Shown here: positions 21,693 to 56,955 of the stretch, one piece after another | How the letters are laid out: every line of letters begins with the position of its first letter | How positions within the stretch are numbered: position 1 is the stretch's first letter | Program-made: the position numbers and the translations under genes | Assembly (NCBI GenBank): GCA_034658635.1 | Contig: JAYEFL010000330.1 | Coordinates: forward strand, 1-61,595 | Length of the DNA stretch: 61,595 bases | Direction of reading: 5' to 3' | DNA from: Bacteroidota bacterium | GTDB taxonomy: Bacteria > Bacteroidota > Bacteroidia > Bacteroidales > UBA12481 | Notes under the pieces: generated by a model | Told to the model about the DNA's origin: nothing | What the model saw: only the letters and a program-made list of their open reading frames with translations | The model's database searches: none

Positions 21693-21765
21693 CACGGATG
21701 GAGAGACTCGAACTCCCAGCCTGCGGTTTTGGAGACCGCTGCTCTACCAATTGAGCTACATCCGT
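21693..21765 (-). tRNA. tRNA-Trp (anticodon CCA)
   Basis: Manually folded cloverleaf on the minus strand: acceptor ACGGATG/CATCCGT, anticodon loop CTCCAAA, T-loop TTCGAGT. Confidence 0.9.
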
Positions 21766-21774
21766 TTATAAGGA

Positions 21775-21810
21775 AAGATAATCCGGCACCTCAGGTATCC
21801 GGATTATCTT
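21775..21810 (-). terminator. 12-bp hairpin between tuf and tRNA-Trp (weak terminator or processing structure)
   Basis: AAGATAATCCGG/CCGGATTATCTT stem with a 12-nt loop. The downstream tract on the minus strand is only moderately T-rich (TCCTTATAA). Confidence 0.4.
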
Positions 21811-21830
21811 CTCTATAAAAGGTTTATTTT

Positions 21831-23021: not shown

Positions 23022-23083
23022 GGTTAACTTTGTTTAATCCGTTAATTATCAATTATTTAAACTTATTTCAAAAAATCGGTTCG

Positions 23084-23155
<72 letters not shown>

Positions 23156-23164
23156 TTTGCTCCG

Positions 23165-23236
23165 AGCGGGAAACGAGATTCGAACCCGCGACCCTCAGCT
23201 TGGAAGGCTGATGCTCTACCGCTGAGCTACTCCCGC
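23165..23236 (-). tRNA. tRNA-Gly (anticodon TCC)
   Basis: The minus strand reads GCGGGAGTAGCTCAGCGGTAGAGC...CTTCCAA...GGGTTCGAATC...TTCCCGCT. Confidence 0.88.
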
Positions 23237-23250
23237 TAGTTATCAAAAAG

Positions 23251-23333
23251 TGGGGAGAGGAGGATTCGAACCTCCGAAGGCATACGCCAGCAGAGTTACA
23301 GTCTGCCCCAGTTGGCCACTTTGGTATCTCCCC
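23251..23333 (-). tRNA. tRNA-Tyr (anticodon GTA, long variable arm)
   Basis: The minus strand reads GGGGAGATACCAAAGTGGCCAA...ACTGTAA...long variable arm...GGTTCGAATCC...TCTCCCCA. Confidence 0.88.
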
Positions 23334-23348
23334 ATTATCATATCACAG

Positions 23349-23422
23349 AGCCAATGGAGGGATTCGAACCCACGGCCTGCTGATTACAAATCAGCTGCTC
23401 TGACCAACTGAGCTACATTGGC
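23349..23422 (-). tRNA. tRNA-Thr (anticodon TGT)
   Basis: The minus strand reads GCCAATGTAGCTCAGTTGGTCAGAGC...TTTGTAA...GGGTTCGAATCC...CATTGGCT. Confidence 0.88.
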
Positions 23423-38866: not shown

Positions 38867-39376
38867 TCAGGAATGGTCATCCACCCCGTAGATCATTTTC
38901 ATAGAATGTAGAACAGTTGGTAAGATTTCTGTGCAGTATTCACGAACAGCTTTAACGCTACCAGGCAATGCATAAATAAGCATCTGCCCTCTCACTCCTG
39001 CGATACTTCTGGAAATTAAAGCATTAGGCTTCTGCATTCCATATTTTACCCGGATCATTTCCATGATTCCGGGTATTTCTTTATCCAGTAACTCGCGTAT
39101 AACATCCGGAGTAAAGTCCTTAGGTCCGATGCCTGTACCTCCAGTTGTAAATAAGACGTGAATACTTTTGTCACTACTATCCTGCACAAGCATACTCAAT
39201 TGAACAGGATCATCGGGAATCAGGAGGTTTCTTATCTCGATATCAAGCTGTTTTTCACTAAAATAATCAGTACAAAGTCGACTTATTTCCGGGCCACTCA
39301 AATCTTCATACTCACCCTTACTGGCTCTGTCAGAAAGTGTAATGACTCCAATTTTCAAAATATCCGGCAAGCTCAT
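38867..39376 (-). CDS. mog: Molybdopterin adenylyltransferase MogA/MoaB family
   Basis: 169 aa. IGVITLSDRAS... and TTGGTGIGPKDFTPD are MoCF_biosynth-domain motifs. Confidence 0.8.
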   Translation of the reverse strand: MSLPDILKIGVITLSDRASKGEYEDLSGPEISRLCTDYFSEKQLDIEIRNLLIPDDPVQLSMLVQDSSDKSIHVLFTTGGTGIGPKDFTPDVIRELLDKEIPGIMEMIRVKYGMQKPNALISRSIAGVRGQMLIYALPGSVKAVREYCTEILPTVLHSMKMIYGVDDHS

Positions 39377-39822
39377 TTTTTTTCTTTACTTAGAAGAATA
39401 ATCTCTGCAAGCTGCATCCCCTTATCCACAGCTTTGCACATATCATAAACTGTCAGCAGGGCTACACTTACCGCAGTAAGGGCTTCCATCTCCACTCCTG
39501 TTTGTCCGATGCATTTTACTTCACTAATGATTTGTACACCATTTTCCTCCAGACTTGCCTCCACCCTGACTTTAGTCAATCGCAAAGTATGGCACAAGGG
39601 TATAAGATCAGCAGTTCTTTTTGCAGCTTGTACTCCGGCAATTTCAGCTACAGTCAGAACATCTCCTTTCTTCATATTATTATCTCTCACCAGGCTGACT
39701 GTTTCAGCATTCAAGCTGATAAAACCACTGGCTTTAGCAACCCTGGTCTGCTCAGGTTTGTGCCCTACATCAACCATACGGGCTCTGCCCTGATCATCGG
39801 TATGACTAAGTTTTTCTGACAT
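39373..39822 (-). CDS. moaC: Cyclic pyranopterin monophosphate synthase MoaC
   Basis: 149 aa with MVDVGHK, LIPLCH and EMEALTAVSVALLTVYDM MoaC blocks. Has a 4-nt overlap with mog. Confidence 0.9.
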   Translation of the reverse strand: MSEKLSHTDDQGRARMVDVGHKPEQTRVAKASGFISLNAETVSLVRDNNMKKGDVLTVAEIAGVQAAKRTADLIPLCHTLRLTKVRVEASLEENGVQIISEVKCIGQTGVEMEALTAVSVALLTVYDMCKAVDKGMQLAEIILLSKEKK

Positions 39823-39869
39823 ATCAAGAGATTAGTAGTACAAAGGTATTAAAATGTTAATGGGATAAT

Positions 39870-40670
39870 CTATCCACCAATCCCATAGAAGCTACCCTCA
39901 GGATTCAGTCCGCCTTGTTTAGGCTTTTTCTGTAATGCCTCCAGAATCGCTTTTTTCGGACCAAGTTCTCTGACCGAATAGCCACGGGTGCTGAACAGGC
40001 ATGGTTTTATCAGTCCATTGCTGGTTAATCTGAGACGGTTACAGCTGGAACAGTTTCCGCCTTCACCTCCTTCTACTGGCTGAAAATATCCCTTCTCGAG
40101 ATCCATCATGTGAATAAATCTCACCTCATAAGCATTTTTACCGGCAAAATCTCTAACCATACGTGCATCCGGTTCATCTGATGAACTGGTAATAACACAG
40201 TTTAGTTTAATGGGATTCAGTCCTGCTTTTTCTGCAGCTTTCAATCCGGCAAAAACCTCATTTATATCTCCTCCACGTGTAATCTCAGCGTACTTATCAG
40301 GATCCAAGGTATCCAGACTGACATTAACGCGGTGAAGTCCGGCATCTTTCAGATCCCGGGCATATTTTGTCAGGTACGTTGCATTGCTTGTCATGGCAAG
40401 GTCTTTGATCCCATTAATCCCTGAAATCATTGACACTAAATTCACGATACCCTTACGAACCAATGGTTCCCCTCCAGTTATCCTGACTTTATCTACTCCG
40501 AGATCAACAGCCACCCGAACCACTTCTACAATTTCATCAAAACTGAGAATATCTGTATGTGAAAGCGGAACTACTCCTTCTGCAGGCATGCAGTAAACGC
40601 AGCGGAGATTACATCTGTCAGTAACAGATATTCTGAGGTAATTAATTCTTCTGTTATATCTGTCGAACAT
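39870..40670 (-). CDS. moaA: GTP 3',8-cyclase MoaA (radical SAM), compact 266-aa form
   Basis: YLRISVTDRCNLRCVYC radical-SAM cluster, C-terminal auxiliary cluster CSSCNRLRLTSNGLIKPC, and a terminal IGG. Confidence 0.88.
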   Translation of the reverse strand: MFDRYNRRINYLRISVTDRCNLRCVYCMPAEGVVPLSHTDILSFDEIVEVVRVAVDLGVDKVRITGGEPLVRKGIVNLVSMISGINGIKDLAMTSNATYLTKYARDLKDAGLHRVNVSLDTLDPDKYAEITRGGDINEVFAGLKAAEKAGLNPIKLNCVITSSSDEPDARMVRDFAGKNAYEVRFIHMMDLEKGYFQPVEGGEGGNCSSCNRLRLTSNGLIKPCLFSTRGYSVRELGPKKAILEALQKKPKQGGLNPEGSFYGIGG

Positions 40671-41829
40671 TCACTAATTCTCCTTCATCAATTTGGGACT
40701 GACCAACTCTAAAATAAATAAAACCCTGGGCCTGGTTTAAAGCAAAGATGTGAGCTGAGCCGTGATAATCAAGTGGAATCACCCTCCCCTCCTCAGATAG
40801 TTTAACCGGTATCCATGACATCCGTTCGGTCTTTTTACGAATGAACTTCTTCCCAGCAGGCAGTTTCCATACTTGAGGCTTCCAATCATGCCCCATGCAT
40901 TTGAAAAGAAAAGGCTTAACCAGAATCTCAAATTGCACAAAAGCAGAAACAGGATTACCCGGGAGAGCAAATATGTATCTTTCTTTCCCAACTGCAAATG
41001 TAGTTGGTTTGCCGGGTTGAACAGCAATCCTCTGATATTTCAATTCCATGCCCAATCTTGTCAAAACAGAGGGTACAAAGTCAAACTCACCCATCGACAC
41101 TCCTCCCGACAGTATTAATAAATCTGTCGACTTCAAGGCTTTTGACAATTGTTCATAGGTTTTCTCCTCATCGTCAGGAGCTATCCCAAAATATACAGGA
41201 TCAAGTCCCAGCTTAATGAGCTGAATCATCATTTGAGAGGCATTGGAATTCCGTATTTGTGAAACTCCCGGTTTTTGGTCAGGCTCAACTAATTCCGTAC
41301 CTGTAGCGATAACCCCAACCCTAATTTGTTTGTATACAGGAACACTCACTACGCCGATAGTTGCCAGCAGAGGGATATGCCTTTCACTCAAAAGAGCTCC
41401 CTTTTCAAGGATAAGGTCTCCCTTATTAACATCTTCTCCGAGATAACATATATTGTTATGTGTTTTTTCTCCTGTGAATATCACTTTATTAGATTCCTTT
41501 AACTCTGTCTGCTCCACCATGATTACAGTATCAGCTCCTTTTGGTACAATTGCACCCGTCATTATCTGGGAACACTGCCCTTTTCCAACTTCTTGTTCAG
41601 GCTTCACTCCAGCAGGTATAGTTTCAATAATCCTTAGCTCAAGATGCAAATCAGCCTTCCTGCAAGCATAGCCATCCATAGCACTTTTGTCAAATGGCGG
41701 CATTGAAATATCTGTAAATAAGTCTTCTGACAATACTCTATCAACTGACTGTAAATAAGGCACTTTTTCTACACTTTGCAGATTTGCAGCATTCAAGGTA
41801 ATAGAAAGAGCTTCCTCAAATAGTATCAT
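40654..41829 (-). CDS. moeA: Molybdopterin molybdenumtransferase MoeA
   Basis: PPFDKSAMDGYA and ILSGGVSMGEFD motifs. The ATG at 41829 is preferred over the TTG at 41850. Has a 17-nt overlap with moaA. Confidence 0.85.
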   Translation of the reverse strand: MILFEEALSITLNAANLQSVEKVPYLQSVDRVLSEDLFTDISMPPFDKSAMDGYACRKADLHLELRIIETIPAGVKPEQEVGKGQCSQIMTGAIVPKGADTVIMVEQTELKESNKVIFTGEKTHNNICYLGEDVNKGDLILEKGALLSERHIPLLATIGVVSVPVYKQIRVGVIATGTELVEPDQKPGVSQIRNSNASQMMIQLIKLGLDPVYFGIAPDDEEKTYEQLSKALKSTDLLILSGGVSMGEFDFVPSVLTRLGMELKYQRIAVQPGKPTTFAVGKERYIFALPGNPVSAFVQFEILVKPFLFKCMGHDWKPQVWKLPAGKKFIRKKTERMSWIPVKLSEEGRVIPLDYHGSAHIFALNQAQGFIYFRVGQSQIDEGELVNVRQI

Positions 41830-41894
41830 ATCTAAAAAATTTGAATGCAAAGGTAGAGTTTTATTTGTGAAGATTTTTTCAAAAAACCTTCATG

Positions 41895-41981: not shown

Positions 41982-42290
41982 ATGAAAATTAAACGCAAGT
42001 ATTTACTCTATTGCCTGGCATTTATGGTATTTTCATCATCCGGGTTAACAAAAATTTCAGCTTTTTCAGGTGGATCTATTGATTCAGACGAGAAAGACGC
42101 GAAGATCATGGTAGGTTACGTACCTACTACCTACAAAAAGGCTTCAGGTACTCGTGTTGAACACATTTACTTTGCCGGAAACCATTTTACCCGAACCGTG
42201 TGTGACTACGAAACCTTCCGATGTTGCAAGTCAACCGGGAATGAGATGGATGGATGTTCAGCACCTGTAAAATGTCCTGATAGTTTGTAA
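41982..42290 (+). CDS. Secreted Cys-rich small protein (paralog 1), unknown function
   Basis: 102 aa. Signal peptide MKIKRKYLLYCLAFMVFSSSGLTKISA, then a SGGS stretch. The C-terminal motif CC-x9-C-x5-C is shared with the 44084-44410 product. Confidence 0.55.
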   Translation: MKIKRKYLLYCLAFMVFSSSGLTKISAFSGGSIDSDEKDAKIMVGYVPTTYKKASGTRVEHIYFAGNHFTRTVCDYETFRCCKSTGNEMDGCSAPVKCPDSL

Positions 42291-42300
42291 TCTCGCTAAT

Positions 42301-42903
42301 ATGAATAAACAGGTACACTTGGTATTAATCGTTCTTTTTCTAATTTTGGCTAATCTGGTATTAGTCTTTCAATATCGAAATACGATTAACAAGAACCGCA
42401 TGAAGGCAGATCAAAAGAACATCAATCTGACAAAGACTTTGGCAGATGCTGAACTGACTAATCTGGCCTGGGCAACCTCGGTAAGCATTCCTCCGAGAAC
42501 AGTACCAATAGAATGTCTTGAGATTCTGCCATCTGAAGGAGCGCTTATTGTAAGATTGTCTGACAATCAATGCAGTAGCTGCATTGATCAGCTTTTATTT
42601 GAAATACGGAAGCATTTGGCTGACATTGGGCCTGACAACCTGATTGTTATGTATTCTTCAAAAAGAGATCATCAAATCAATCAAAGATTCAGACTACGCC
42701 TTTTAGACCCTGTTAAATTCATCAATGTACCGGAAAATATGGAAGTAACACCACTTGATCAGTTTCGTATCCCTTACCTTTTTCTGATTAATGCAAGTGG
42801 TGAAGTTCAGGCATCCTTTCTTCCATATCCGGCCACAGAGAAATTTACCGGGATATTCCTTAAACACATCGCAAATCAATTTCACAAAAGTTATGAAAAT
42901 TAA
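42301..42903 (+). CDS. Membrane-anchored thioredoxin-fold-like protein with a single CxxC (TlpA/redoxin-like)
   Basis: N-terminal TM helix (VHLVLIVLFLILANLVLVF). LIVRLSDNQCSSCIDQ (CxxC after a beta-strand-like segment) and a later IPYLFLINASGEV (cis-Pro-like region). Confidence 0.45.
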   Translation: MNKQVHLVLIVLFLILANLVLVFQYRNTINKNRMKADQKNINLTKTLADAELTNLAWATSVSIPPRTVPIECLEILPSEGALIVRLSDNQCSSCIDQLLFEIRKHLADIGPDNLIVMYSSKRDHQINQRFRLRLLDPVKFINVPENMEVTPLDQFRIPYLFLINASGEVQASFLPYPATEKFTGIFLKHIANQFHKSYEN

Positions 42904-44077
42904 ATCAATCTTAATGTTTGGGCTTATTGCCGGCTTGTTCTTTTCATGTCAGACAAAGACAGATACACCAATAGGACAAAACACCTTCAGAGCTGAATTT
43001 GTTGACAATATTAAACTCAGCGAATACTTCACGTCTCTTGAATATATATTTCTGGAAGAAAGTCCTGATGGCCTTTTCATGAACGCAGATAAGATTATTT
43101 TTTTTCAGAAACGGTGGTATATCCTCGACAGTGAACTGATGGCGATTCTTTGCTTTGAAGAAAACGGCAAATTTTTGTTCAGGATTCATTCAGTGGGCAG
43201 AGGTCCAGGTGAATATCAATTACTTACCGACATAATGATTCATGAAACGAACAAAGAGCTTTGGGCTCAATGCAGGAAGAGTACTAAAATCTTTGTCTAC
43301 AATCTGGATGGGCAACTGATCAGGGAAGAGTCCGTTGGCAGAGTGGGCATAGATTTCATCCAAATGAACGAATCAGATATCCTTGCATACGACGAGGAAA
43401 GGCACCTTTTTCGTAAGGATGATGCAATAAATAATGGCGTTTACCTCTTTGGTCACAGCTTCAGGCGAAAACATCAACTATTTGAGCTGCCATCAGGAAC
43501 AACATACTATTCTTTGAATAACAATAATAATTTCTCTTTGCACAAGGATAGTTGTTTTTTCTTATCACCTTCAGACAGCCTGATGTGCTTTCCTCCTGAC
43601 CTTAATCCAATTGTGGTTGGTGTTTTCGATTTTGGAACTTATCATCTTTCTGAGAAGCTTAAACATTTGCCAAACAAGGTCCAATATTTTTCTGACGTCA
43701 TTGACTCCGGAAAAGTTTTATGGAAAGAAAACCTTGTTGTAACATCTCAAGCTGTTTTTCTTCAACTTGGGCTCCAAAACACTTCCTGGTTTGGAGTCAT
43801 AGATCGCAAAAACTCAAGATTCAGAGTCACCCAGGGCCTTATTAATGATTTAGACTCAAGAGTTTTCACCTTTCCGTCATTCCGCAAATCACGCACTGAA
43901 GTTGTCGGATTTATTTCGGCTGACCTCCTTTTGGCCTATCAGGAGAGTATCTCAAAGATTTCGGATGAGGATAAAAAAACGGAAAACACAAAAGCACTGA
44001 TTGCTTTCATTGAAAAAGGCCTTGAAGGCTCTGGGAACGTACTAGTTATTTCAAAAATTAAAGAACAATTTAAATAA
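42893..44077 (+). CDS. Lipoprotein, probable 6-bladed beta-propeller (BF3164-like family)
   Basis: Lipobox LFFSCQ from ATG 42893. GRGPGEY motif and repeated hydrophobic-strand pattern, as I recall for Bacteroides 6-bladed propeller lipoproteins. Has an 11-nt overlap with the upstream gene. Confidence 0.5.
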   Translation: MKIKSILMFGLIAGLFFSCQTKTDTPIGQNTFRAEFVDNIKLSEYFTSLEYIFLEESPDGLFMNADKIIFFQKRWYILDSELMAILCFEENGKFLFRIHSVGRGPGEYQLLTDIMIHETNKELWAQCRKSTKIFVYNLDGQLIREESVGRVGIDFIQMNESDILAYDEERHLFRKDDAINNGVYLFGHSFRRKHQLFELPSGTTYYSLNNNNNFSLHKDSCFFLSPSDSLMCFPPDLNPIVVGVFDFGTYHLSEKLKHLPNKVQYFSDVIDSGKVLWKENLVVTSQAVFLQLGLQNTSWFGVIDRKNSRFRVTQGLINDLDSRVFTFPSFRKSRTEVVGFISADLLLAYQESISKISDEDKKTENTKALIAFIEKGLEGSGNVLVISKIKEQFK

Positions 44078-44083
44078 ATTAAC

Positions 44084-44410
44084 ATGAAAATTAAAAACCT
44101 TATCACCATTTTATCGCTGTCTGTTATATTCATCTTCAATGCTGCCTTTAGTCTGGCATCAGCAGAAGGAGGAGGAGACAATTCACACACAGAAAGCACA
44201 ACTGATTCACACTGGCTAAAAAATCATCGTAGAACCCAAAAAAAGGTGAAAGACAGTATCACCGTGGGACTTGAAGGTGATGTTAATACTTTGGGTATAG
44301 GATTCTTTAGAGTGAATACAAACATCAAATGGGTCTTTGTTCAATGCTGTAAGTATACAGTAGAGTCTGACTATTGGTGTAACGCAGCACTGCAGGATAA
44401 GCGGTGTTAA
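44084..44410 (+). CDS. Secreted Cys-rich small protein (paralog 2), unknown function
   Basis: 108 aa. Signal peptide ending FSLASA, then EGGGD. The C-terminal motif is CCKYTVESDYWCNAALQDKRC (CC-x9-C-x8-C). Confidence 0.55.
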   Translation: MKIKNLITILSLSVIFIFNAAFSLASAEGGGDNSHTESTTDSHWLKNHRRTQKKVKDSITVGLEGDVNTLGIGFFRVNTNIKWVFVQCCKYTVESDYWCNAALQDKRC

Positions 44411-45336
44411 AAAACAGGTAAACAATATGGGGGGAGCGAAGAGCTCTCCCCATCCGGGTTACCTTGAATCTTAATCCCAAGACCAATTTCACCATCGTGA
44501 GTACCATCCAGACTTTTGACCAGAAAAGCCCCAAAAAGTCCTGATTCCGTTTTAAAAACATACACGTTATCAATGATCAGTTCCTTAGCTTTTCGCTTTG
44601 CATCCTCATCAGAGTATAAAGGAATAATCAGACCATCATGAAAAATATTCTCAAATTGTTCAGGTGTTATCTCTGTTTTAATGAATCTCGTGGTGTTTCT
44701 TGTTGACCAGTTTTCAGGAGAAGCATCTCCTGAAAAGATCCCGGATTGGATATTTGCACCAGGTGAAGTAACACATGCCTGGTCATCGTCACTATGGTAA
44801 TAAATCAGATCTACAGTTTCCTGGTTTTGGAAAGCTCCCTCAAGATCATACCTTAAAGCACCGGATAAACTTAAAAAGCCAGGAATAAACACATTGTTCT
44901 GAGCTCCCAGCCTAATGTCATCAAAATACTTGACGGGACCATAAATAGAATTTGGGTCCTTACTCAGCACGATACTTGCCGATGCCTCATTACCCTTTTC
45001 ATCAATCAAAGTAAACTTCCATAATTCTTCCTCCGAGAAGCTTTTCATTAGATTAAAGCTGTACTCACCCCTGTCAATAATATCAAGATGATACGACTGT
45101 AGTAGTTGCTCACTGGCATAAACATCCAGTGTCCTCAACTTATCAGTCTCATTCCATTCTAAAACAACTCCAATTTTAATCGTATCACCTACCATCAGCA
45201 TAGTATCCTGAGATAGGAAACCTTCTCCTTCCACAAAACTAATATTTGGAGGGCCCATATCCTTCTGGCATGAAATAAAGACTGAAAAAGCAATAAGGAT
45301 ATATACAAACGAGTTTAAAATATTGATACTCTTCAT
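44407..45336 (-). CDS. Lipoprotein of unknown function
   Basis: 309 aa with lipobox VFISCQ. ATGA overlap with the upstream membrane-protein gene. Its stop codon overlaps the convergent 44084-44410 stop. Confidence 0.55.
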   Translation of the reverse strand: MKSINILNSFVYILIAFSVFISCQKDMGPPNISFVEGEGFLSQDTMLMVGDTIKIGVVLEWNETDKLRTLDVYASEQLLQSYHLDIIDRGEYSFNLMKSFSEEELWKFTLIDEKGNEASASIVLSKDPNSIYGPVKYFDDIRLGAQNNVFIPGFLSLSGALRYDLEGAFQNQETVDLIYYHSDDDQACVTSPGANIQSGIFSGDASPENWSTRNTTRFIKTEITPEQFENIFHDGLIIPLYSDEDAKRKAKELIIDNVYVFKTESGLFGAFLVKSLDGTHDGEIGLGIKIQGNPDGESSSLPPYCLPVF

Positions 45337-45902
45337 TTTCGATATTTCTTAATAATACTAAATAGGCCGGCAGTGAATCCCGATCCAATCATTCCAAATA
45401 GAAAAAAGCCAGCAACAGGAGCTAAGGGAGTACCATATTTCACCGCTGCCGGATAAACAATTCCTGTTATAGCCATCAGTAAAATTCTAAATAATGGAAC
45501 AGCCATATAAGAAAGCCCACCAACAAGCGCCAGAATCCAGGCCTTCCTCTTATTTTCTGGCAGCTTGGAATAAACCAGATCTAATATGAATACAGGCAGC
45601 AAATAACCCATTGCTGAAATAGGATTCTTGAAACCGATAAAAGGTAGAAAGATCATTAATCCGATTCCCAATGCCAGGAAGACAGAAGAAAACTTGACCT
45701 TTGACACCATCCGTCCTGCAAGTAAGAGAGCCATAAAATCCAATCCATGATGCCCCGGAATACTAATCCCTATCCTGAATTTAGCATGTAAGAATATGGC
45801 AAAGGCCCCTGTAAGAAACAGCAAAACTGCTTCAATAACGGTGGCTGATAAATCAGGAGCTAAGCTCCTTGAGGTAGAGTTTATCTGCTGTTTTCCAATC
45901 AT
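45333..45902 (-). CDS. Polytopic membrane protein (about 5-6 TM), unknown function
   Basis: Hydrophobic helices throughout (for example VIEAVLLFLTGAFAIFL and VAGFFLFGMIGSGFTAGLF). The ATG at 45902 is the first ATG. The ORF overlaps the upstream gene by about 50 nt. Confidence 0.5.
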   Translation of the reverse strand: MIGKQQINSTSRSLAPDLSATVIEAVLLFLTGAFAIFLHAKFRIGISIPGHHGLDFMALLLAGRMVSKVKFSSVFLALGIGLMIFLPFIGFKNPISAMGYLLPVFILDLVYSKLPENKRKAWILALVGGLSYMAVPLFRILLMAITGIVYPAAVKYGTPLAPVAGFFLFGMIGSGFTAGLFSIIKKYRK

Positions 45903-46593
45903 TTCCTGATCTTTTAAGGTTTTTCTCAGCAATAATATATGTCTTGCTATTTATTAGAACCGCTCTGATCCAATCTGTTAAATCAATCATCAAAGCAGCA
46001 TCAAGAATCTTCCCATCTCTGGTCATAACTGCGTCAACCTGAGTTCCTTTTAGAAGTTGCTCAACAGTCATTGAACCAACCAGATCCCGAAGTTGCTTAC
46101 CAGGCTGCCATATAAAACGTCCGTCATTTCCAAAATTCCTTAGTCCGATAGCAGCGAGGGCCCCAATAATTCCATCAAAGGTTCCTGTTAATCCTTCAAG
46201 CTGAATACCATTTCTATCAGCTATATCACGGGCTTCTTTCTGGGTCAGGACTTCGCACTTGGCTCTGCGCCCCCATTCTTCAACTTCCAAAGGCACCTTT
46301 CCTGCTTCAACTATGCACAAACCAACATCGCTACCCGGAATAGCCTCCCTCAACATGAAACTCCGACAAAACTCCCAAAGTTTTTCTTTATTATGAGCTT
46401 CGATCTCAAGACAATTGGAACTGTTTTGTGAAGTATAGGGTATTAGTTCATGAACGTAAAGTTGATGCCGGGTAATACCCATAACCTTTCCATAGCCGGC
46501 AAGCATTAGTTCAGAACCCATTTGTCTGGCTCTGAAACCAGTACCACGACTTTCTTTAGAGTCAGTATCGTCAACAGAAACAAATACACGCAT
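45853..46593 (-). CDS. Stand-alone protein resembling the N-terminal kinase (TCKD) domain of archaeal tRNA-agmatidine synthetase TiaS
   Basis: MRVFVSVDDTDS... (the TiaS-like xGIDDTDS start), an IPYTS... segment and GIIGALAAIG. These parallel TiaS blocks as I remember them. No OB-fold or Zn-ribbon follows. Confidence 0.45.
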   Translation of the reverse strand: MRVFVSVDDTDSKESRGTGFRARQMGSELMLAGYGKVMGITRHQLYVHELIPYTSQNSSNCLEIEAHNKEKLWEFCRSFMLREAIPGSDVGLCIVEAGKVPLEVEEWGRRAKCEVLTQKEARDIADRNGIQLEGLTGTFDGIIGALAAIGLRNFGNDGRFIWQPGKQLRDLVGSMTVEQLLKGTQVDAVMTRDGKILDAALMIDLTDWIRAVLINSKTYIIAEKNLKRSGNDWKTADKLYLKELSS

Positions 46594-46635
46594 AGCTCGC
46601 AAAAATAAAATCTTCAATAAATGAAGTACATGATT

Positions 46636-47034
46636 TTACTCAGTTCCCGGATTATCTTTATTATTCAATTTGTTAAAAAACTGACGGGTTATCCGATGAA
46701 TGGCCTGATCAAACTGAGAGTGCAATTCCTCAAAAGCGGCCAGAAGCTCTTTCCCGTCTTCCGTCAACTGTGATAATCCGCCATCTTTTCCACCCCTGGT
46801 AGAGTCAATCAAGCTAAGTCCAAGAAATTCTTCAGCTTCTTTAATGTCCCCCCAGGCTTTTCTATAACTAAGCCCTTTCTTTAATGCAGCCTTTTTCAAG
46901 GATCCATGCAAACCAATTTCCTTAAGGAGTTCGATCAGCTGATCATCCACTTTGCCATCACTTATCTGACTTTTCAGCCACACTTGATAATCAAGGAAAA
47001 TGTCAAAATATTTCGATCCTTTTGGTCCTGCCAT
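46636..47034 (-). CDS. ModE N-terminal-domain-like winged-HTH regulator (no Mop/TOBE domains)
   Basis: GSLKKAALKKGLSYRKAWGDIKEAEEFLGLSLIDSTRGGKDGGLSQLTEDGKELL closely follows the ModE/LysR-like HTH pattern (GS..AA..LG.SYR.AW......LG..L......GG..GG...LT..G..LL). Confidence 0.7.
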   Translation of the reverse strand: MAGPKGSKYFDIFLDYQVWLKSQISDGKVDDQLIELLKEIGLHGSLKKAALKKGLSYRKAWGDIKEAEEFLGLSLIDSTRGGKDGGLSQLTEDGKELLAAFEELHSQFDQAIHRITRQFFNKLNNKDNPGTE

Positions 47035-47110
47035 TCGTCATGCAATATATAACATAACGATTGAAAATTGAAATACTTCTTGCACAATCAATATTCTGTT
47101 GTTTTGCATC

Positions 47111-49519
47111 CTAATTCTCAATATTATAGCTTATCCTGAATCTGCCCGGATCATTAAAAACAATTTGCTGCTTATCAGATGTGCTCACTGATCCATCTGG
47201 TCCTGTTATTGTCTCAAGCTGAGTTGGTTTAAGAAGCTGTGGCACCCAAATAATCTCTGTATCTTTCGGAATCAAAAGATCAAATACAATTTTTGAAGAG
47301 CTTCTCGACCAGGATAAAGAAATCTCCTTTCCAGCAATATTCCGGCTAACGGAGAACTTATCCAGTCCAACAACCGGTGCAGGGTGAAGCATCAAACGTG
47401 CAAATCCACCATCAACCGGATCAATCCCACCAATCCATTTATGAAACCAGGTGGAAACTCCACCAAACATCGGATGGTTCTGCGAATATGTATTATCGCT
47501 TTCTTTCCAGGTTTCCCAGAGAGTAGTGGCATCGTTTTCTATCATATGCCTCCAACCTGGGAAATCTTTGCGTGAGACCATATCAAATGCTTGCTGAACA
47601 TATCCGTATCGTGATAAAACCTCAAGGAGCCAGGGAGTCCCAAAGATTCCGGTTGTTAACTGATTATTCCGATTAATAAGATCATCTGTCAACATTTTTA
47701 GTGCTCGTGGCTGGTCTTCATCTGCCAAAATGTTGTTATACAACATAGTTGCCAACCAAGTTTGTTTGTTCTCAAAATTAACCACAGGCTGGTTCCACAA
47801 TGAGTCTCTCATGATGATCTGGATGTTATCAGCATAATTCCTGTACTTTTTTTCAGAAGGAGAGTCTGATAAAATTGCTGCGAATTTCTGCATAGTACGT
47901 AGTGAGGTATAATAATACGCGGTACCTATCAATTCAACAGGAACAGGGATTAGGCTCTCATGGTCACTCAACCCTTCCCTAACCAGATCCATGCCATGAA
48001 TACCGATAGCTTTCTCTATCCATTGTTGATTATATGAATACCATTCTCTCAGTAGGTCCACATCTCCATAAAATTTAAAAAGCCATTCCTGAAGCATCAG
48101 AAAGTTTGATTCCCAGGCAATCCCACAATAGTTTATACCAACATTGGGAGCAGTATCAACAAATTTCCCATCTCTCATTGCATCCTTCCAGTCTCTCAAA
48201 AACTTGATAAAGATGTTCTTCATATCATAGTTATACAGCCAGGCTTCGGCATTGGCACTCATATCACCTCCATAGCCAAATTTCTCTCTGGCGGGACAAT
48301 CAGAGGCAACGCTAAAAATATTCGAAGTAAAAGTCCATTCAACCATCTCCTGAATTTGGTTCAGCCATTCAAGATCAGATTCAACAACACCAATTTTATT
48401 AAGGTCTGTACCCACTCTGAAAGCGATAAAGTCCTCTTTGCTTACACCAATATTATCCGATTCAGGATTTCTGGTCATTTCAACATATCTGAATCCGTGG
48501 AAAGTATATCTGGGTTCGAAATATTCTTGATTTTCAGAAGGAACAAAAACATCAAGCTGCTCAGCAATAGCCGGAGCACCAGGTCCACCAACGCCAGCGC
48601 GTTTTATCTGTCCGCACACTGCTGTCAGAGTATTAACTGTACTATCTGGCCAGATTCGCTCACCAAATCTGAACCGTATGGTATCTCCAGAATCTGTCTG
48701 ACCTTCATAACGTATCCATCCTGCCATATTTTGCCCAAAATCAATAGTCCATTTCCCCGGTTCATTTTGCCAGATCGCCTTGGGCTTCAAGCTCGTTGTC
48801 TTTCTGATAGGAGGAAAATCTTCTTCAAGCAAATCTCCGCCCGGAGATGATGTCACTTCAACAAAGTCCCACGAAGAATCATCAAATTTGGAAAGTTTCC
48901 ATCCGATTGGTTCAGCACTGTAATCGTGGAATTCACCCAGAAAAATACTATTTCGCCTAATTGCACCCTGACTTGATTTCCAACTGCCATCTGAAATAAT
49001 CTGAATCTCTCCTTTTTGTTCTGCATCGATTATCATGCTGGCAAGAACTCTTGGTTTCCCAACTGGTAAACGTTCTCGTAAATTTAAGTGGCCCCACATT
49101 CTCAGGGGCAAAGGATTATACCAACCATTTCCAAGTTCAATTCCTACCACATTCGCCCCCTTGTGAAGATAATCTGACACATCAAATTTCTGATAATAAA
49201 TCCTTTTAGAGTAGTCTGTCCAGGCGGGAGCCAATTCCTGATCGCTAATCCTTTCACCATTGATCCAAACAGTGTAATAGCCGGCAGCGGTAATCCATAA
49301 ACCAGCAGTTGATGGCATTCGTTTTAAGACAAACTCCTTCCTTAGCAAAGGAGCAGGATTATCCAGGTAAAACAAGGAATCTGATTCTGGTAAAGGATCA
49401 TTATCTGAGATCCATAATGCATCAGCAAATGGATCATGATTCAGGTTTAAGCTTTCATCTGTGGTAGAACAAGCTGAAAAAACAACTGTGAAGAAAAGCA
49501 AAATCAAAAAACGGATCAT
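47111..49519 (-). CDS. Alpha-L-rhamnosidase (GH78), lipoprotein
   Basis: Lipobox VVFSACS from ATG 49519. GH78 N-terminal block WITAAGYYTVWINGERISDQELAPAWTDYSKRIYYQKFDVSDYL..GANVVGIELGNGWY. About 800 aa. Confidence 0.78.
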   Translation of the reverse strand: MIRFLILLFFTVVFSACSTTDESLNLNHDPFADALWISDNDPLPESDSLFYLDNPAPLLRKEFVLKRMPSTAGLWITAAGYYTVWINGERISDQELAPAWTDYSKRIYYQKFDVSDYLHKGANVVGIELGNGWYNPLPLRMWGHLNLRERLPVGKPRVLASMIIDAEQKGEIQIISDGSWKSSQGAIRRNSIFLGEFHDYSAEPIGWKLSKFDDSSWDFVEVTSSPGGDLLEEDFPPIRKTTSLKPKAIWQNEPGKWTIDFGQNMAGWIRYEGQTDSGDTIRFRFGERIWPDSTVNTLTAVCGQIKRAGVGGPGAPAIAEQLDVFVPSENQEYFEPRYTFHGFRYVEMTRNPESDNIGVSKEDFIAFRVGTDLNKIGVVESDLEWLNQIQEMVEWTFTSNIFSVASDCPAREKFGYGGDMSANAEAWLYNYDMKNIFIKFLRDWKDAMRDGKFVDTAPNVGINYCGIAWESNFLMLQEWLFKFYGDVDLLREWYSYNQQWIEKAIGIHGMDLVREGLSDHESLIPVPVELIGTAYYYTSLRTMQKFAAILSDSPSEKKYRNYADNIQIIMRDSLWNQPVVNFENKQTWLATMLYNNILADEDQPRALKMLTDDLINRNNQLTTGIFGTPWLLEVLSRYGYVQQAFDMVSRKDFPGWRHMIENDATTLWETWKESDNTYSQNHPMFGGVSTWFHKWIGGIDPVDGGFARLMLHPAPVVGLDKFSVSRNIAGKEISLSWSRSSSKIVFDLLIPKDTEIIWVPQLLKPTQLETITGPDGSVSTSDKQQIVFNDPGRFRISYNIEN

Positions 49520-49624
49520 AGCAATAGAATAAAGATTAATAATCAGCTTATAAATATACTGAATTCCCCTTGTGATACTCAACTGATTCTATTGTCTGAT
49601 TCCTTTCCAAGGTTTATTAACTGC

Positions 49625-49680: not shown

Positions 49681-51831
49681 TTATTGATATGGTTTAACAA
49701 CCTCTAAGATTTCCGGTAAATCCATTCCTATTTTCTTAAGAAACTCGATTTTAGGAACTCCGTTTGAATTCCATCCACGACGTTCATAAACAGCATCCAG
49801 AAGTTTTTCATACTGCTCCTCACGAAACTTACGCAAGGCCTGATGTTTTTCGACTACGGTCATTTTTTCTGTATCCAGACCCAGATTCTCCCTTAATTGC
49901 TTATCATAACGCTCTATACGGCTCTCAAATTCTTCAAGAGTCACAGGTCCTGCAGCACGGAAAGGCTGAGCATCATGCTTTCTTGTTCCATATCCTCTTC
50001 TCAGGTTAAAGACTCTCTGGAAGTTGTATATACGCTCTGAATCCTCAATCATTCTGACATTGTCAAATTCCTTGCCAGTGACTGATTTATAGAGTGTGAC
50101 ATAATTATCCACGTGTTCAGGCACTTTTGCAGGTTCGTCGGTTTCAGCATTGTTTGATGGTTCAACATCATTCCAGGGCAATTTGCACAATCCAACCAGT
50201 CCGAACCAGGTACGGAACATAGGAAAATAATGTAAGGCCTCGGCTTTATCGGCAAAAGAAGGAATCTGATTATTCACCATGTCCATGAAAATCAACCAGG
50301 CTTCATCATGCTGAGGTCCTTTGTTTGTCATTGCAAAACCACCTTGTTGTGCCAAAGACTCTTTGGAAACATATTCTGAATACTCAAGGCCTTTATTTTC
50401 CATTCCGATATCCTGGAGGAAGTTTGGATCTCCTCCATATTCATTAGCAAAGATCTCTTTCATTTTCCTGATTCCATAACCGGCAATCTTCCCAAAGCCC
50501 TCACCCCGGGCACATTGATGAAGTAACTCAATAGCAGCTTCAGCATTTCCAAAATTCAGCTCCAGTCCACCCGTAATCTCCTTATTGATGATTCCTGCTT
50601 CGTAGCACTCCATAACAAATGCTAATAAGGTTCCCCAGGAGATTGTATCCATTCCATAGGTGTCGCAGTAAAAGTTTGCTTCAATAATGTAATACGGATC
50701 AAAGATTCCACAATTGGATCCCAATCCGGCAGCATTCTCATATTCCGGTCCATCAACAATTACGTCTTCTCCTTTGTATGGGCCTGTTTGAACAATATAA
50801 TTATCAACCCCTTTTGCACATGACATATTACAGCCAATCCAGCAACCATCGGGTGTGCCTTGTGCAAACAGCGATTTCCAAACCTCAGAGTCAATCAATG
50901 GAGCTTTCTCGTCTTTCCCAAATTTATAATTCTTAACAGGTAGCAAATCATAATCGTCCATGATCTCCATAAGGTGAGCAGTACCCTTGGTCTTCATTTC
51001 ACATTGCTCTTCATCAAGCTCACGCATTTCTTTATTAAAGCGCTTACCTCTTTCCATTATAGCCGGAAGATCTACCACATTATTAAGATTTCCCTTAACT
51101 CCGGGAATCTTGCAGACCAATGCTTTTATATGCTTACTTCTGAACACAGTTCCTGTACCACCACGACCAGCCTGCTTCAGACGTACACGTCCTTTTTTCT
51201 TATCATAGAAACTAAAGTTCAGCATTCCAACCCAGGAATGTTCAGCAGCCATTCCGGATGAGACTACAGACACATTCACCTTTTTCCCATCATCAGCGTA
51301 CATTTCGGTTAAGACTTCTGAGAGCTGATGGCTATCCATAGGCTCCAGAGGGGCTTCTTCAATACTCACCTTTCCAGTGGTTCCGTCAATCACGACAATT
51401 ACATCCTTGTCGGCTTTCCCTTGCAATTCAATGGCATCAAAACCAGAGAATTTCACAAAGGGGCCAAAATAACCACCGGCATTGGAATCAGTTACTGATC
51501 CGCTGGCTGGCGACAAAGTAACAACCAATGATTTTCCTGTACCTGAATACTGAGTGATACCACCTATCGGACCTGAGGATATAACTATCTCATTTTCTGC
51601 ATCATCCCACTTGGTTTCAGGAGTAGTAGCATCCCATAACAATCTCATGCCATACCCTTTTCCACCAATGAACTTCTCCTTCATTACGGGATCAACATCT
51701 TTTATCTGTAAAGAATTATCAGAAACATTTACATACAGAATTTTATCTGTATACCCCTTTTCTAATGGTGATACTTCATAGTTAAGCTCACCAAGGACTT
51801 TATGAGCCCCTTTTATTTCCTTGATATCCAT
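49681..51831 (-). CDS. Aldehyde:ferredoxin oxidoreductase family (tungsto/molybdopterin enzyme), long 716-aa form
   Basis: AOR N-terminal domain (...KILYVNVSD...GGKGYGMRLLW...) and Cys cluster GCWIGCNMSC. C-terminal YERRGWNSNGVPK is typical of AOR-family proteins. Confidence 0.88.
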   Translation of the reverse strand: MDIKEIKGAHKVLGELNYEVSPLEKGYTDKILYVNVSDNSLQIKDVDPVMKEKFIGGKGYGMRLLWDATTPETKWDDAENEIVISSGPIGGITQYSGTGKSLVVTLSPASGSVTDSNAGGYFGPFVKFSGFDAIELQGKADKDVIVVIDGTTGKVSIEEAPLEPMDSHQLSEVLTEMYADDGKKVNVSVVSSGMAAEHSWVGMLNFSFYDKKKGRVRLKQAGRGGTGTVFRSKHIKALVCKIPGVKGNLNNVVDLPAIMERGKRFNKEMRELDEEQCEMKTKGTAHLMEIMDDYDLLPVKNYKFGKDEKAPLIDSEVWKSLFAQGTPDGCWIGCNMSCAKGVDNYIVQTGPYKGEDVIVDGPEYENAAGLGSNCGIFDPYYIIEANFYCDTYGMDTISWGTLLAFVMECYEAGIINKEITGGLELNFGNAEAAIELLHQCARGEGFGKIAGYGIRKMKEIFANEYGGDPNFLQDIGMENKGLEYSEYVSKESLAQQGGFAMTNKGPQHDEAWLIFMDMVNNQIPSFADKAEALHYFPMFRTWFGLVGLCKLPWNDVEPSNNAETDEPAKVPEHVDNYVTLYKSVTGKEFDNVRMIEDSERIYNFQRVFNLRRGYGTRKHDAQPFRAAGPVTLEEFESRIERYDKQLRENLGLDTEKMTVVEKHQALRKFREEQYEKLLDAVYERRGWNSNGVPKIEFLKKIGMDLPEILEVVKPYQ

Positions 51832-51909: not shown

Positions 51910-51923
51910 ATGATTTTAATCAT
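51910..51923. promoter_or_regulatory. 14-bp palindrome ATGATTttAATCAT in the AOR / DUF364 divergent intergenic region (candidate operator)
   Basis: Perfect 6-2-6 inverted repeat read from the sequence. It lies 44 nt upstream of the DUF364-like ATG and 79 nt from the AOR ATG. Confidence 0.3.
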
Positions 51924-51966
51924 TATGCATAGGATTACATATCGGTAGAATTCTTACTTTTACCTC

Positions 51967-52665
51967 ATGAAAATATCTGATCCTGTCACCCACTGTTTAC
52001 AAGAATATGGTTACAGCTCTGACCTGATTGAAGAAGTTGTAGTTGGAGACAAGTATCTGGCCTGCCTCCTTAAAAATGGACAGTTGGGTGTATGTGCTAC
52101 CCTGGGGCATGATTTTCCAGAGAACTATTCTTATTTGAGTTTACCTGATTCAAAGAAACTCTGTGACAGAATCCTGCTAAATGCTTATTTTAATGCCTTA
52201 TTGAATTATGACCGGAAGTACACCAGTCATAAAGATATTTATGATTTTATCCACTTTGAAAAGTATAAGCGGATAGTTATGGTTGGATATTTCGCATCAT
52301 TGATTACAAAATTTTATAAAGCTGGGATTCATCTGGATATTTTTGATCTTAATAAACAGCATCCTGATGTCATCCCTATGAACAGTCAGATCGATTTTAT
52401 CTCCAGGGCAGATGCAATGATTTTAACTTCCACTTCATTGTTCAATGGTAGTTTTGCAAGCTTAGTGAAAGTAAGCCGTAAGAATTCAGATATTTTCATG
52501 CTTGGTCCTTCTACGATTCTGAATCCATTCATGTATCAATATCCTAATATCTCAAAGATATTCGGAACAATTTTTCCGCAGAACCAGAAACTCGTAATGA
52601 AAATGATTAAAGAAGGACATGGAACACCTTCTTTTGGAAAACTCGGACACAAAGTATATTTGTAG
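51967..52665 (+). CDS. DUF364/DUF4213-like Rossmann-domain protein (putative metal-chelation family)
   Basis: 232 aa. N-terminal ...VVGDKYLACLLKNGQLGVCATL... and central RIVMVGYF...DIFDL resemble the DUF4213+DUF364 architecture. Identified from memory, not verified. Confidence 0.5.
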   Translation: MKISDPVTHCLQEYGYSSDLIEEVVVGDKYLACLLKNGQLGVCATLGHDFPENYSYLSLPDSKKLCDRILLNAYFNALLNYDRKYTSHKDIYDFIHFEKYKRIVMVGYFASLITKFYKAGIHLDIFDLNKQHPDVIPMNSQIDFISRADAMILTSTSLFNGSFASLVKVSRKNSDIFMLGPSTILNPFMYQYPNISKIFGTIFPQNQKLVMKMIKEGHGTPSFGKLGHKVYL

Positions 52666-52666
52666 T

Positions 52667-53251
52667 ATGAACTTTAAGGAAATTCAAAATAAACTCTCTA
52701 AATTTTCTGTAGGTATTGCAGGGGCTGGTGGTCTTGGCAGTAACTGTGCAGTTGCCCTGGTGAGATGCGGAATAGGACATTTGATAATTGCTGATTTTGA
52801 TACTGTTGAACCCGGCAATCTTAACAGACAGTATTATTTCAGGAATCAAATAGGACAATATAAAGTTGATGCTCTGAAGGAAAATCTTTTGAGAATTAAC
52901 CCGGATCTTAAGATTGATATTCACAAAAATAAGCTTGACAGTAAATCCCTTATCAGCACTTTCAATAATGTTCATGTGCTGGTGGAAGCGTTTGATCACG
53001 CAAAACAAAAAGAAATGGTAGTAGAAACTGCACTTGAAGCATGGCCTGACCGACCCTTGGTTATGGGAATTGGCATGGCAGGTTTTGGTAAAACTGAAAT
53101 TCTAAAGATCTATGTTTCCGGGAATCTGTATATTTGTGGTGATGGGACTGAAGAAATTGGTCCTAATAATCCACCGATTGCACCCAGAGTTGGAATTGTA
53201 GCTAATATGCAGGCAGATAAGACTGTGGAGTTGCTTCTGGGGATTGGTTGA
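52667..53251 (+). CDS. thiF: ThiF/MoeB-type E1-like adenylyltransferase, short family-2 ThiF form
   Basis: VGIAGAGGLGSNCAVALVRCGIGHLIIADFDTVEPGNLNRQ nucleotide-binding block. 194 aa from ATG 52667, 1 nt after the upstream stop. Confidence 0.8.
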   Translation: MNFKEIQNKLSKFSVGIAGAGGLGSNCAVALVRCGIGHLIIADFDTVEPGNLNRQYYFRNQIGQYKVDALKENLLRINPDLKIDIHKNKLDSKSLISTFNNVHVLVEAFDHAKQKEMVVETALEAWPDRPLVMGIGMAGFGKTEILKIYVSGNLYICGDGTEEIGPNNPPIAPRVGIVANMQADKTVELLLGIG

Positions 53252-56878: not shown

Positions 56879-56955
56879 TGTCGTTGTGATTTAACAAATC
56901 TATGTTTGACTTGTTCCTATTAAAGAGATTGTATTCAGAAATAATAAATAGAACA

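Follow-up and report, generated by a model that had tools for sequence, protein, structure and literature searches.

A Stand-Alone TiaS-Kinase-Like Protein and Its Membrane Partner in a Candidate ModE-Controlled Locus for Tungstate or Molybdate Acquisition in Bacteroidota

Introduction

Tungsten (W) and molybdenum (Mo) enzymes, among them the aldehyde:ferredoxin and tungsten oxidoreductases (AOR/WOR) and the formate dehydrogenases (FDH), are central to anaerobic, gut and one-carbon (C1) metabolism. To our knowledge, the accepted routes for the entry of the corresponding oxyanions comprise only three ATP-binding cassette (ABC) systems, namely Mod, Wtp and Tup. Here we describe four consecutive minus-strand genes from a Bacteroidota bacterium, located in a stretch of 61,595 nucleotides (nt; 61.6 kb, contig JAYEFL010000330.1), the whole of which is referred to as the window. 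They encode, in this order, a ModE-like regulator without Mop/TOBE domains (ModE-N), a stand-alone protein of 246 amino acids (aa) that resembles the TCKD domain of TiaS, a small membrane protein (TM) and a lipoprotein. The window locus is a trimmed copy of a widespread, undescribed module, and the gene set probably marks an ATP-dependent step in bacterial tungsten acquisition. Chances are about even, in our judgment, that the four genes constitute a ModE-controlled module for the acquisition of tungstate (or molybdate), in which an S-component-like permease would act together with a TiaS-like cytoplasmic partner that uses ATP. Support is good for the assignment to W/Mo acquisition and moderate for a role of TM as permease; what the TCKD-like protein does chemically is a guess.

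Several described systems share parts with this locus. TiaS, the archaeal tRNA(Ile2) 2-agmatinylcytidine synthetase, converts ATP into AMP and pyrophosphate (PPi) and phosphorylates C34 at its C2 oxygen. Its N-terminal 151 residues (structures 3amt, 3amu, 4rvz and 5xob) share the TCKD fold and motifs with the protein described here, which carries a C-terminal beta domain of ~90 aa instead of the ferredoxin-like, oligonucleotide-binding (OB) and zinc-ribbon domains of TiaS. Unlike TiaS, the TCKD-like protein is bacterial, coupled to a membrane protein, found in a W/Mo context and endowed with extra invariant residues (SRGTG, TRHQ, SQNSS, GSD and GNDGR). A second relative is methanogenesis marker 11 (TIGR03280), a family itself of unknown function, the model positions 130–284 of which match aa 6–161 of the TCKD-like protein; the N-terminal half of that family is missing from the latter.

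On the regulatory and transport side, ModE/ModABC, WtpABC and TupABC are linked to the locus by a predicted ModE-type winged helix-turn-helix (HTH), a 24-bp box and the presence of WtpA and TupA genes within related loci. While ModE possesses two C-terminal Mop/TOBE sensor domains, ModE-N has none, and most loci, unlike Mod, Wtp and Tup, contain a TonB-dependent receptor, a lipoprotein, TM and the TCKD-like protein in place of an ABC permease and ATPase. The S-components of energy-coupling factor (ECF) transporters and the PnuC-NadR pair are comparable to TM in being small (~190 aa), in representing its nearest fold (S-components) and in the pairing with a cytoplasmic ATP-using enzyme; TM differs in that its similarity to S-components lies below significance, EcfT/EcfA genes are not found nearby and the presumed substrate is an inorganic oxyanion. 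Finally, the HmuY/HmuR and BtuG/BtuB capture loci show the order of lipoprotein and receptor, with a protein bearing a type IX secretion system (T9SS) tail, that is found in relatives of the window locus, but lipoprotein homology is not detectable and the receptor is missing from the window.

In full-text literature searches on TiaS, TCKD, DUF1743, marker 11, and TonB receptors in relation to tungsten or molybdenum, we came across no description of the TCKD-like family. Recent papers on WOR and W-FDH discuss only TupABC/ModABC and MoeA/MobB/FdhD, and a review counts what W and Mo do in the FDH of methanotrophs among the open questions.

A Gene Set Conserved in Order and Strand

A scan of one genome per species yielded 453 confirmed loci, 80 of which were kept for comparison. 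They belong mostly to Bacteroidota, and also to Gammaproteobacteria (including Methylococcaceae), Anaerolineae/Chloroflexota, Acidobacteriota and Alphaproteobacteria. Neighbors were counted by tblastn with the window proteins, and by all-against-all clustering of open reading frames (ORFs) for partners that the window lacks. The TCKD gene, present in all 80 loci, is followed on its 3′ side by the TM gene in 73, across four phyla; the lipoprotein gene is found in 51 and the ModE-N gene, directly 5′ of TCKD, in 28. Order and strand are constant, and this recurrence is far beyond chance. The original prediction of a novel system had tied itself to the conservation of the quartet in other genomes, and the set is kept across phyla.

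The ORF list places the four genes consecutively on the minus strand (Table 1). Their tight linkage, first described as an 18-nt gap followed by two overlaps, stands for the overlaps and has to be revised for the gap. The TCKD and TM genes overlap by 50 nt (45853–45902), the conserved start of TM being M11 at 45902, and the TM and lipoprotein genes share a 4-nt ATGA (45333–45336). The 18-nt gap fits only a TTG start at 46617. Since the TCKD homologues, both in a 29-sequence alignment and in the homologue search, all begin with MRV.., the true start is the ATG at 46593, which leaves a 42-nt spacer after the ModE-N stop. Among 63 loci in which the starts were aligned, the TM start falls exactly 50 nt within the TCKD gene in 53; in the others the distance is 44 or 47 nt. 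The start codon of TM is ATG in 42. The conservation of this overlap across phyla argues for translational coupling and a joint function of the two proteins. The arrangement of the whole set as a four-gene operon is a local fusion, because the lipoprotein gene in most relatives heads a separate ModE-box-controlled unit together with a TonB-dependent receptor gene.

A Stand-Alone TCKD Domain

The AlphaFold2 model of the TCKD-like protein has a predicted local distance difference test score (pLDDT) of 90.9 and a predicted template modeling score (pTM) of 0.89. Foldseek aligns it to the TiaS structures 5xob, 4rvz, 3amu and 3amt with E-values of 8e-11 to 1.6e-9 over 153–157 columns, at a root-mean-square deviation (rmsd) of 2.3–2.4 Å and 24–25% identity; the best match is 5xob (E 8e-11, 153 columns, 2.3 Å). 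A profile of 29 family sequences matches residues 1–151 of TiaS in the PDB with an E-value of 2.6e-10, so the similarity to the TiaS TCKD domain that had been suspected from motifs is recovered by both structure and profile. With the single sequence, the Pfam family TiaS_TCKD remains below threshold (21.4 bits vs 27, aa 12–50 only), phmmer against the PDB gives E-values of 0.02–0.04, and the best-scoring curated family is TIGR03280 (E 1e-13, 51 bits vs a cutoff of 255.8). Some homologues bear a precomputed PF22641 match.

The motifs DDTD, IPY-T/S and G-x-IGALAA-x-G are common to TiaS and invariant or nearly so in the TCKD-like family, and the window protein carries them as DDTDS, IPYTS and GIIGALAAIG, as originally read. 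T18 aligns without a gap to Thr18 of TiaS, although a two-residue shift of the SRG motif leaves the register ambiguous. Polar residues that are invariant in this family specifically lie in S-R-G-T-G, T-R-H-Q, S-Q-N-S-S, G-S-D, W-G-x-R-A-K and G-N-D-G-R and at W208/R210. Only aa 1 to ~155 align to TiaS; the remaining ~90 aa form a beta-rich C-terminal domain for which Pfam and the PDB return no match, even at E up to 10. The absence of the OB fold and zinc ribbon was correctly anticipated, and the full-length NCBIfam model of TiaS (NF040849) yields 25.7 bits, its cutoff being 600. Judged from model and alignment, the 246-aa protein has a genuine TCKD domain and yet would fail all other defining features of TiaS. 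In Foldseek the model also weakly resembles HPPK, a pterin pyrophosphokinase (E about 0.01).

As the sole characterized TCKD domain modifies C34 of a tRNA, and as some homologues are labeled 'tRNA(Ile2) C34 agmatinyltransferase TiaS', the protein might modify tRNA or nucleotides, have nothing to do with metals and lie in this neighborhood by chance. The missing ferredoxin-like, OB and zinc-ribbon domains and the low NF040849 score argue against such an activity, and W/Mo synteny and ModE boxes conserved across phyla (see below) speak against chance, so that this explanation is very hard to credit.

The family is large: the indexed search returned 3814 clusters at 90% identity and, at 50% identity, 1157 representatives with E ≤ 1e-3 and 350 with E ≤ 1e-30. 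Database labels read 'hypothetical protein', with an occasional automatic assignment to TiaS or 'ABC substrate-binding'. A second, Firmicutes-type subfamily (P0216, P0217, P0265; locus L087) bears a C-terminal CxxC...C tail, and one of its members, P0265 (826 aa), is a fusion with an FAD-dependent oxidoreductase. The sole context observed for this subfamily lies beside Lactamase_B and toxin-antitoxin genes, with no link to W/Mo, and because this context is unrelated the subfamily was not used to infer function.

The Membrane Protein TM

TM shows no match in Pfam, NCBIfam or PDB sequences, even at E up to 10. Its AlphaFold2 model (pLDDT 89.8) comprises six long helices and one short helix, in agreement with the polytopic protein that had been predicted to be coupled to the TCKD-like protein and a lipoprotein. 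Conserved features include the motif PGHHG-L/I-E-x-MA...GR, with the PGHHG loop following helix 1, the residues R64 and D108, which are invariant or nearly so, an L-P-G...D motif and a glycine-rich last helix. In a Foldseek search of the model the top matches are ECF S-components (5edl, PanT 6zg3_C and RibU), all of them weak (E 0.13–1.8, TM-score 0.44–0.51, probability 0.47–0.98), so the S-component likeness of the modeled fold is to be taken as a lead and not as membership.

A TonB-dependent receptor (~700 aa, Plug and barrel) is encoded in 59 of the 80 loci, and none of these 59 has an ABC permease in its flanks. TM is consequently the only polytopic inner-membrane protein in the receptor-bearing loci.

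ModE-N and the ModE-Type Boxes

The first gene had been proposed to encode the DNA-binding part of ModE without Mop/TOBE domains. ModE-N matches TIGR00637 (ModE_repress) with an E-value of 9e-22 and 77 bits, under the cutoff of 98.5, and Pfam HTH_1 with 28.7 bits, over the cutoff of 26.6, while Pfam and NCBIfam reveal no Mop or TOBE domain within its 132 aa.

The upstream regions of ModE-N genes have in common a 24-bp palindrome, CGATATG-N10-CATATCG. The consensus of Escherichia coli ModE is atCGnTATATA-N6-TATATAnCGat (PMC545781), and a box validated by electrophoretic mobility shift assay (EMSA) in Methanosarcina acetivorans reads RTTATGT-N8-RCATAAY (PMC12327845); the palindrome shares length and outer CGnTAT half-sites with the former and resembles the latter. 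With up to 2 mismatches, the 80 loci and the window contain 87 sites, vs 10–16 in shuffled sequences, and almost all are intergenic. A scan of the window for CGWTATG-N10-CATAWCG with at most 1 mismatch retrieves exactly 2 sites, vs 0.05 expected from shuffles (Table 1). By position, boxes precede ModE-N in 13 loci and TCKD genes lacking ModE-N in 9, and they lie between TM and the lipoprotein in 37. Boxes are also located upstream of AOR in 10 related loci and the window, at 46–157 nt and mostly at 88–93 nt. The closest relative, L081, has the AOR-side box only. Gammaproteobacterial loci contain no ModE-type box, which fits their different regulators. In many loci the box upstream of ModE-N directly follows a TAnnTTTG-type promoter element, which is where one would expect a repressor of uptake genes to sit. 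The predicted boxes place the four genes and AOR in one ModE-type regulon, to which they would thus belong.

In six relatives (L006, L009, L018, L058, L063 and L085) genes for aldehyde dehydrogenase and PpnP (a DUF1255 cupin) stand behind perfect or near-perfect ModE-type boxes, and boxes occur in the divergent regions between PpnP and aldehyde dehydrogenase genes of relatives. These predicted sites suggest that the use of tungsten AOR or of NAD-type aldehyde dehydrogenases is switched in response to metal. No such box lies near the aldehyde dehydrogenase gene of the window (56902–58590).

The lack of Mop/TOBE domains raises the question of how ModE-N perceives metal. Single-domain ModE proteins whose sensing mechanism is unexplained are on record (PMC545781). 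It could be envisaged that TM senses periplasmic tungstate and that the TCKD-like protein, acting as a protein kinase in the manner of autophosphorylating TiaS, modifies ModE-N and so supplies the missing metal sensor; the position of the ModE-N gene directly 5′ of TCKD would suit such a circuit. This adjacency is, however, limited to 28 of the 80 loci, and in Chloroflexota and Gammaproteobacteria the regulators beside TCKD-TM possess a PBP_like oxyanion-binding domain of their own, which makes a signaling role quite improbable.

A Tungsten and Molybdenum Neighborhood across Phyla

Genes of W/Mo metabolism recur around the module. AOR is found in 12 of the 80 loci, MoeA in 9 and MoaA in 7, with AOR and MoeA within 6 kb of TCKD; clustering adds PpnP in 12 loci, as well as permease and ATPase genes accompanied by those of SBP_bac_11 and PBP_like_2 binding proteins. 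ABC importer genes adjoin the module in L081, in L002–L004 and in the Chloroflexota loci, where TupA-like or WtpA ABC genes lie next to TCKD-TM and the regulators combine an ArsR-type HTH with PBP_like. According to NCBIfam, WtpA in L086 exceeds both curated cutoffs and those of L081 and L070 exceed the TIGR03730 cutoff; the binding protein of L051 is TupA-like and the ATPase of L081 WtpC-like. In Gammaproteobacteria one partner is a 961-aa molybdopterin oxidoreductase.

Individual loci illustrate the range of arrangements. L085 reads DUF364-ThiF-ThiS, AOR, two Aldedh genes, PpnP, HTH_1, TCKD, TM, lipoprotein, receptor and T9SS protein, and L086 reads PpnP, HTH_1, an orphan WtpA with neither permease nor ATPase, TCKD, TM, lipoprotein and receptor. 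In L088 an fdsGBA-fdhD-fdsD formate dehydrogenase operon is divergent from HTH_17-PBP_like, TCKD, TM and receptor, and the cluster-mates of its TM come from Methylotuvimicrobium. In L089 a molybdopterin operon of formate dehydrogenase type precedes TCKD and TM, after which comes a convergent receptor. The original prediction had left open whether the genes serve oxyanion uptake or activation or a nucleotide- or metabolite-modifying function. As the conserved neighbors across phyla are tungstate transporters, AOR, formate dehydrogenase and molybdenum cofactor (Moco) genes, oxyanion uptake or activation is favored over a nucleotide-modifying role.

The Lipoprotein, the Receptor and the Convergent Cassette

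The lipoprotein follows TM only in Bacteroidota (all 51 loci), with the TonB-dependent receptor next, and a T9SS-tailed protein of ~280 aa occurs in 28 of the 80 loci. The lipoprotein displays the conserved motifs LGAQNN, SPGANI, NW.RNTTRF and KRKAK, and sequence and profile searches up to E of 10 give no Pfam, NCBIfam or PDB match. A faint precomputed match suggesting kinship with HmuY was judged to be noise (E 0.064 for a single one of 21 members, and no match of the profile in the PDB). Kinship among the Bacteroidota lipoprotein, the T9SS-tailed protein and a small lipoprotein of Chloroflexota was likewise rejected, since hhalign finds none; only clusters c17 and c69 are mutually related. 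In seven Chloroflexota loci (L037, L043, L051, L055, L048, L070 and L078) this ~165-aa lipoprotein is encoded 5′ of TCKD. With a probability of 82%, hhalign relates its domain to the C-terminal repeat of a 500-aa Oxidored_molyb-like protein; the L048 version is fused to a Peripla_BP_2-like binding protein.

This composition opens the possibility that the module salvages an organic ligand, either a metal chelate ('tungstophore') or a pterin/Moco compound, through the receptor and an S-component-like facilitator, and that the TCKD-like protein traps it by phosphorylation, as in NadR/PnuC. Chelates and vitamins are the usual substrates of TonB receptors and S-component-like proteins, vitamin S-components are the best fold matches of TM, and lipoprotein, receptor and T9SS-tailed protein together recall hemophore or B12-capture loci; moreover, the TCKD of TiaS is a kinase of an organic carbonyl, the TCKD-like model faintly resembles HPPK, and the Oxidored_molyb-like lipoprotein of Chloroflexota stands 5′ of TCKD. 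Nevertheless, the soluble binding proteins of the loci are of the WtpA and TupA types, specific for the free oxyanion, chelator biosynthesis genes are not present in the loci, and the lipoprotein has no real similarity to HmuY. We regard ligand salvage as unlikely.

Downstream of the lipoprotein gene the window carries a plus-strand cassette of four genes (Table 1), including two small secreted Cys-rich proteins with C-terminal CC...C...C motifs and a DUF5128 protein that is a six-bladed beta-propeller. The stop codon of the lipoprotein gene indeed overlaps that of the convergent 108-aa Cys-rich ORF (44084–44410), as was noticed at the outset. The further suggestion that the two modules are related did not survive the comparison: the cassette, conserved at 32–44% identity in L081, is limited to the nearest relatives, and in more distant Bacteroidales (L007, L010, L045, L047 and L065) the receptor and T9SS protein genes occupy its place between lipoprotein and MoeA. 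A functional link to the Cys-rich peptide cassette was therefore rejected.

The Window as a Reduced Copy

The closest relative (L081/L082) encodes a TCKD-like protein that is 82% identical to that of the window. Its gene order is DUF364, AOR, MatE, rhamnosidase, WtpA, permease, WtpC-like, PpnP, ModE-N, TCKD, TM, lipoprotein, a 188-aa P-loop protein, the convergent Cys-peptide/DUF5128 cassette, MoeA, MoaA, MoaC and MogA/MoaB-like. All of these genes are matched in the window except MatE, WtpA-permease-ATPase, PpnP and the 188-aa gene. The set does lie, as first noted, between Moco biosynthesis genes (38867–41850; 67–74% identical to their L081 counterparts) and AOR.

Table 1. Features of the window locus discussed in the text.
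Feature	Position	Strand	Description
ModE-N regulator	46636-47034	-	132 aa, predicted winged HTH, no Mop/TOBE
Stand-alone TiaS-TCKD-like protein	45853-46593	-	246 aa; longest ORF 45853-46617 (TTG start, 254 aa)
Small polytopic membrane protein TM	45333-45902	-	189 aa; longest ORF 45333-45932
Lipoprotein	44407-45336	-	309 aa, signal peptide, lipobox Cys (..FISC)
ModE-type box 1 (predicted)	47036-47059		CGTCATGCAATATATAACATAACG on + strand; ends 1 nt before ModE-N ATG
ModE-type box 2 (predicted)	51921-51944		between the divergent AOR and DUF364 genes, 90 nt 5′ of AOR
AOR (tungstoenzyme family)	49681-51831	-	89.5% identical to L081 gene with AFOR_N, AFOR_C
DUF364 (WorX-like)	51967-52665	+	Pfam DUF364 E 1e-23; divergent from AOR
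ThiF-like (cluster c11)	52619-53251	+	overlaps DUF364 gene by 47 nt
Convergent Cys-rich cassette	41982-44410	+	four genes: Cys-rich 102 aa and 108 aa, 200-aa protein, DUF5128 428 aa
MoeA	40654-41850	-	L081 homologue carries MoeA_N/MoCF_biosynth
MoaA	39870-40670	-	L081 homologue carries Radical_SAM/Mob_synth_C
MoaC	39373-39822	-	L081 homologue carries MoaC Pfam domain
MogA/MoaB-like	38867-39376	-	L081 homologue carries MoCF_biosynth

Further observations concern the surroundings. WOR genes flanked by worX and thiF have been described for class I tungsten oxidoreductases (PMC13328260), an arrangement matched by the DUF364/ThiF-like pair divergent from AOR. Between AOR and the ModE-N gene the window encodes an 823-aa GH78-type alpha-L-rhamnosidase (47111–49582, minus strand); in the closest relative this gene is flanked by MatE and WtpABC, which are lost from the window, and box 1 sits at that deletion junction. 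The 188-aa P-loop protein of L081 (12138–12704; GATSRNCGKTT), possibly MobB-like, has no NCBIfam match. An Rfam search of the window and 11 related loci yielded no Moco riboswitch or other element except five tRNAs; a cluster of five tRNA genes lies at 21693–23422 (minus strand) of the window.

Proposed Function and Its Weight

The acquisition reading can be put together as follows. Scarcity of tungstate would cause the Mop-less ModE-N repressor to leave its boxes. The oxyanion, either free or carrier-bound, would cross the outer membrane via the TonB-dependent receptor with the help of the lipoprotein, the receptor of the window genome being either encoded elsewhere or lost. TM, loosely S-component-like, would carry the oxyanion over the inner membrane where no ABC permease is encoded, and the TCKD-like protein would spend ATP at the cytoplasmic face and so make uptake effective. 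It may do so by covalent activation or trapping, in the form of phospho- or adenylyl-tungstate, or by handover to MoeA. In ArsA/ArsB an ATPase is coupled to an oxyanion carrier, in PnuC/NadR the transported substrate is trapped by a kinase, and MoSto is a kinase-fold protein that handles molybdate with ATP; together with TiaS, these precedents render ATP-dependent oxyanion handling plausible, though unproven. In its boldest form, which we consider rather unlikely, the TCKD-like protein would be the first enzyme that covalently activates a metal oxyanion during uptake and would constitute, with a new S-component-like permease, a new class of importer working by group translocation or metabolic trapping.

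A number of observations weigh against the acquisition reading. The functional assignment is inferred wholly from fold and neighborhood. The similarity of TM to S-components lies below significance (E 0.13, TM-score about 0.46), and EcfT/EcfA genes are found neither in the flanks of the 80 loci nor in the Pfam-annotated contexts. No TonB receptor and no Mo/W ABC importer are encoded anywhere in the window; the missing importer, remarked on originally, is indeed absent throughout, but this represents a lineage-specific loss, as the closest relative has WtpA-permease-WtpC-like directly upstream. In that relative and in the Chloroflexota loci a full ABC importer lies beside TCKD-TM, so that TM is not needed there for passage across the inner membrane. 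Three close relatives (L002, L004 and L083) keep TCKD and the lipoprotein and have no TM gene in the contig, which means that the TCKD-like protein does not strictly need TM. We know of no precedent for an enzyme that phosphorylates or adenylylates tungstate in the course of uptake, and a Mop-less ModE would have to sense the metal by other means.

In two of the relatives without TM (L002 and L004) WtpABC adjoins TCKD. These loci point to the TCKD-like protein as the hub of the module, with TM perhaps replaceable by an ABC route, and they also lend themselves to an explanation on the cofactor side, namely that the TCKD-like protein acts after uptake, preparing tungstate or pterin for metal insertion by MoeA or enforcing the preference for W over Mo, with TM as a tether near the importer. 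The MoeA and MoaA genes near TCKD in relatives and in the window, the possibly MobB-like P-loop gene that follows the lipoprotein in the closest relative and the weak HPPK likeness are in line with such a role. The commonest and strongest partners are, however, transport proteins (TM and the receptor) and not Moco enzymes, the box position is repressor-like, as for uptake genes, the HPPK likeness stays at the level of a generic alpha/beta fold, and the overlap of 50 nt with a membrane-protein gene is kept across phyla. We view the cofactor-side role as doubtful, albeit worth more than ligand salvage.

Significance

The locus would be a Mo/W acquisition locus built of undescribed parts, and there is a real chance that its TCKD-TM pair represents a new mechanism of transport or activation. 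The locus points to a widespread alternative or additional route, made up of a TonB receptor, a lipoprotein, a small permease and a TiaS-like ATP-using protein, that extends over more than 1,100 protein clusters and at least four phyla. It provides the first candidate role for the TiaS kinase fold outside archaeal tRNA modification and defines a predicted ModE-type regulon in Bacteroidales. The genes merit consideration for the unexplained 'W-Mo switch' of methanotrophs (PMC8262016) and for the tungsten supply of gut WOR (PMC13328260). If covalent activation of the oxyanion by the TCKD-like protein were true, it would explain how many Bacteroidota and methanotrophs without a Tup, Wtp or Mod ABC permease are supplied with tungsten, and how they prefer W over Mo.

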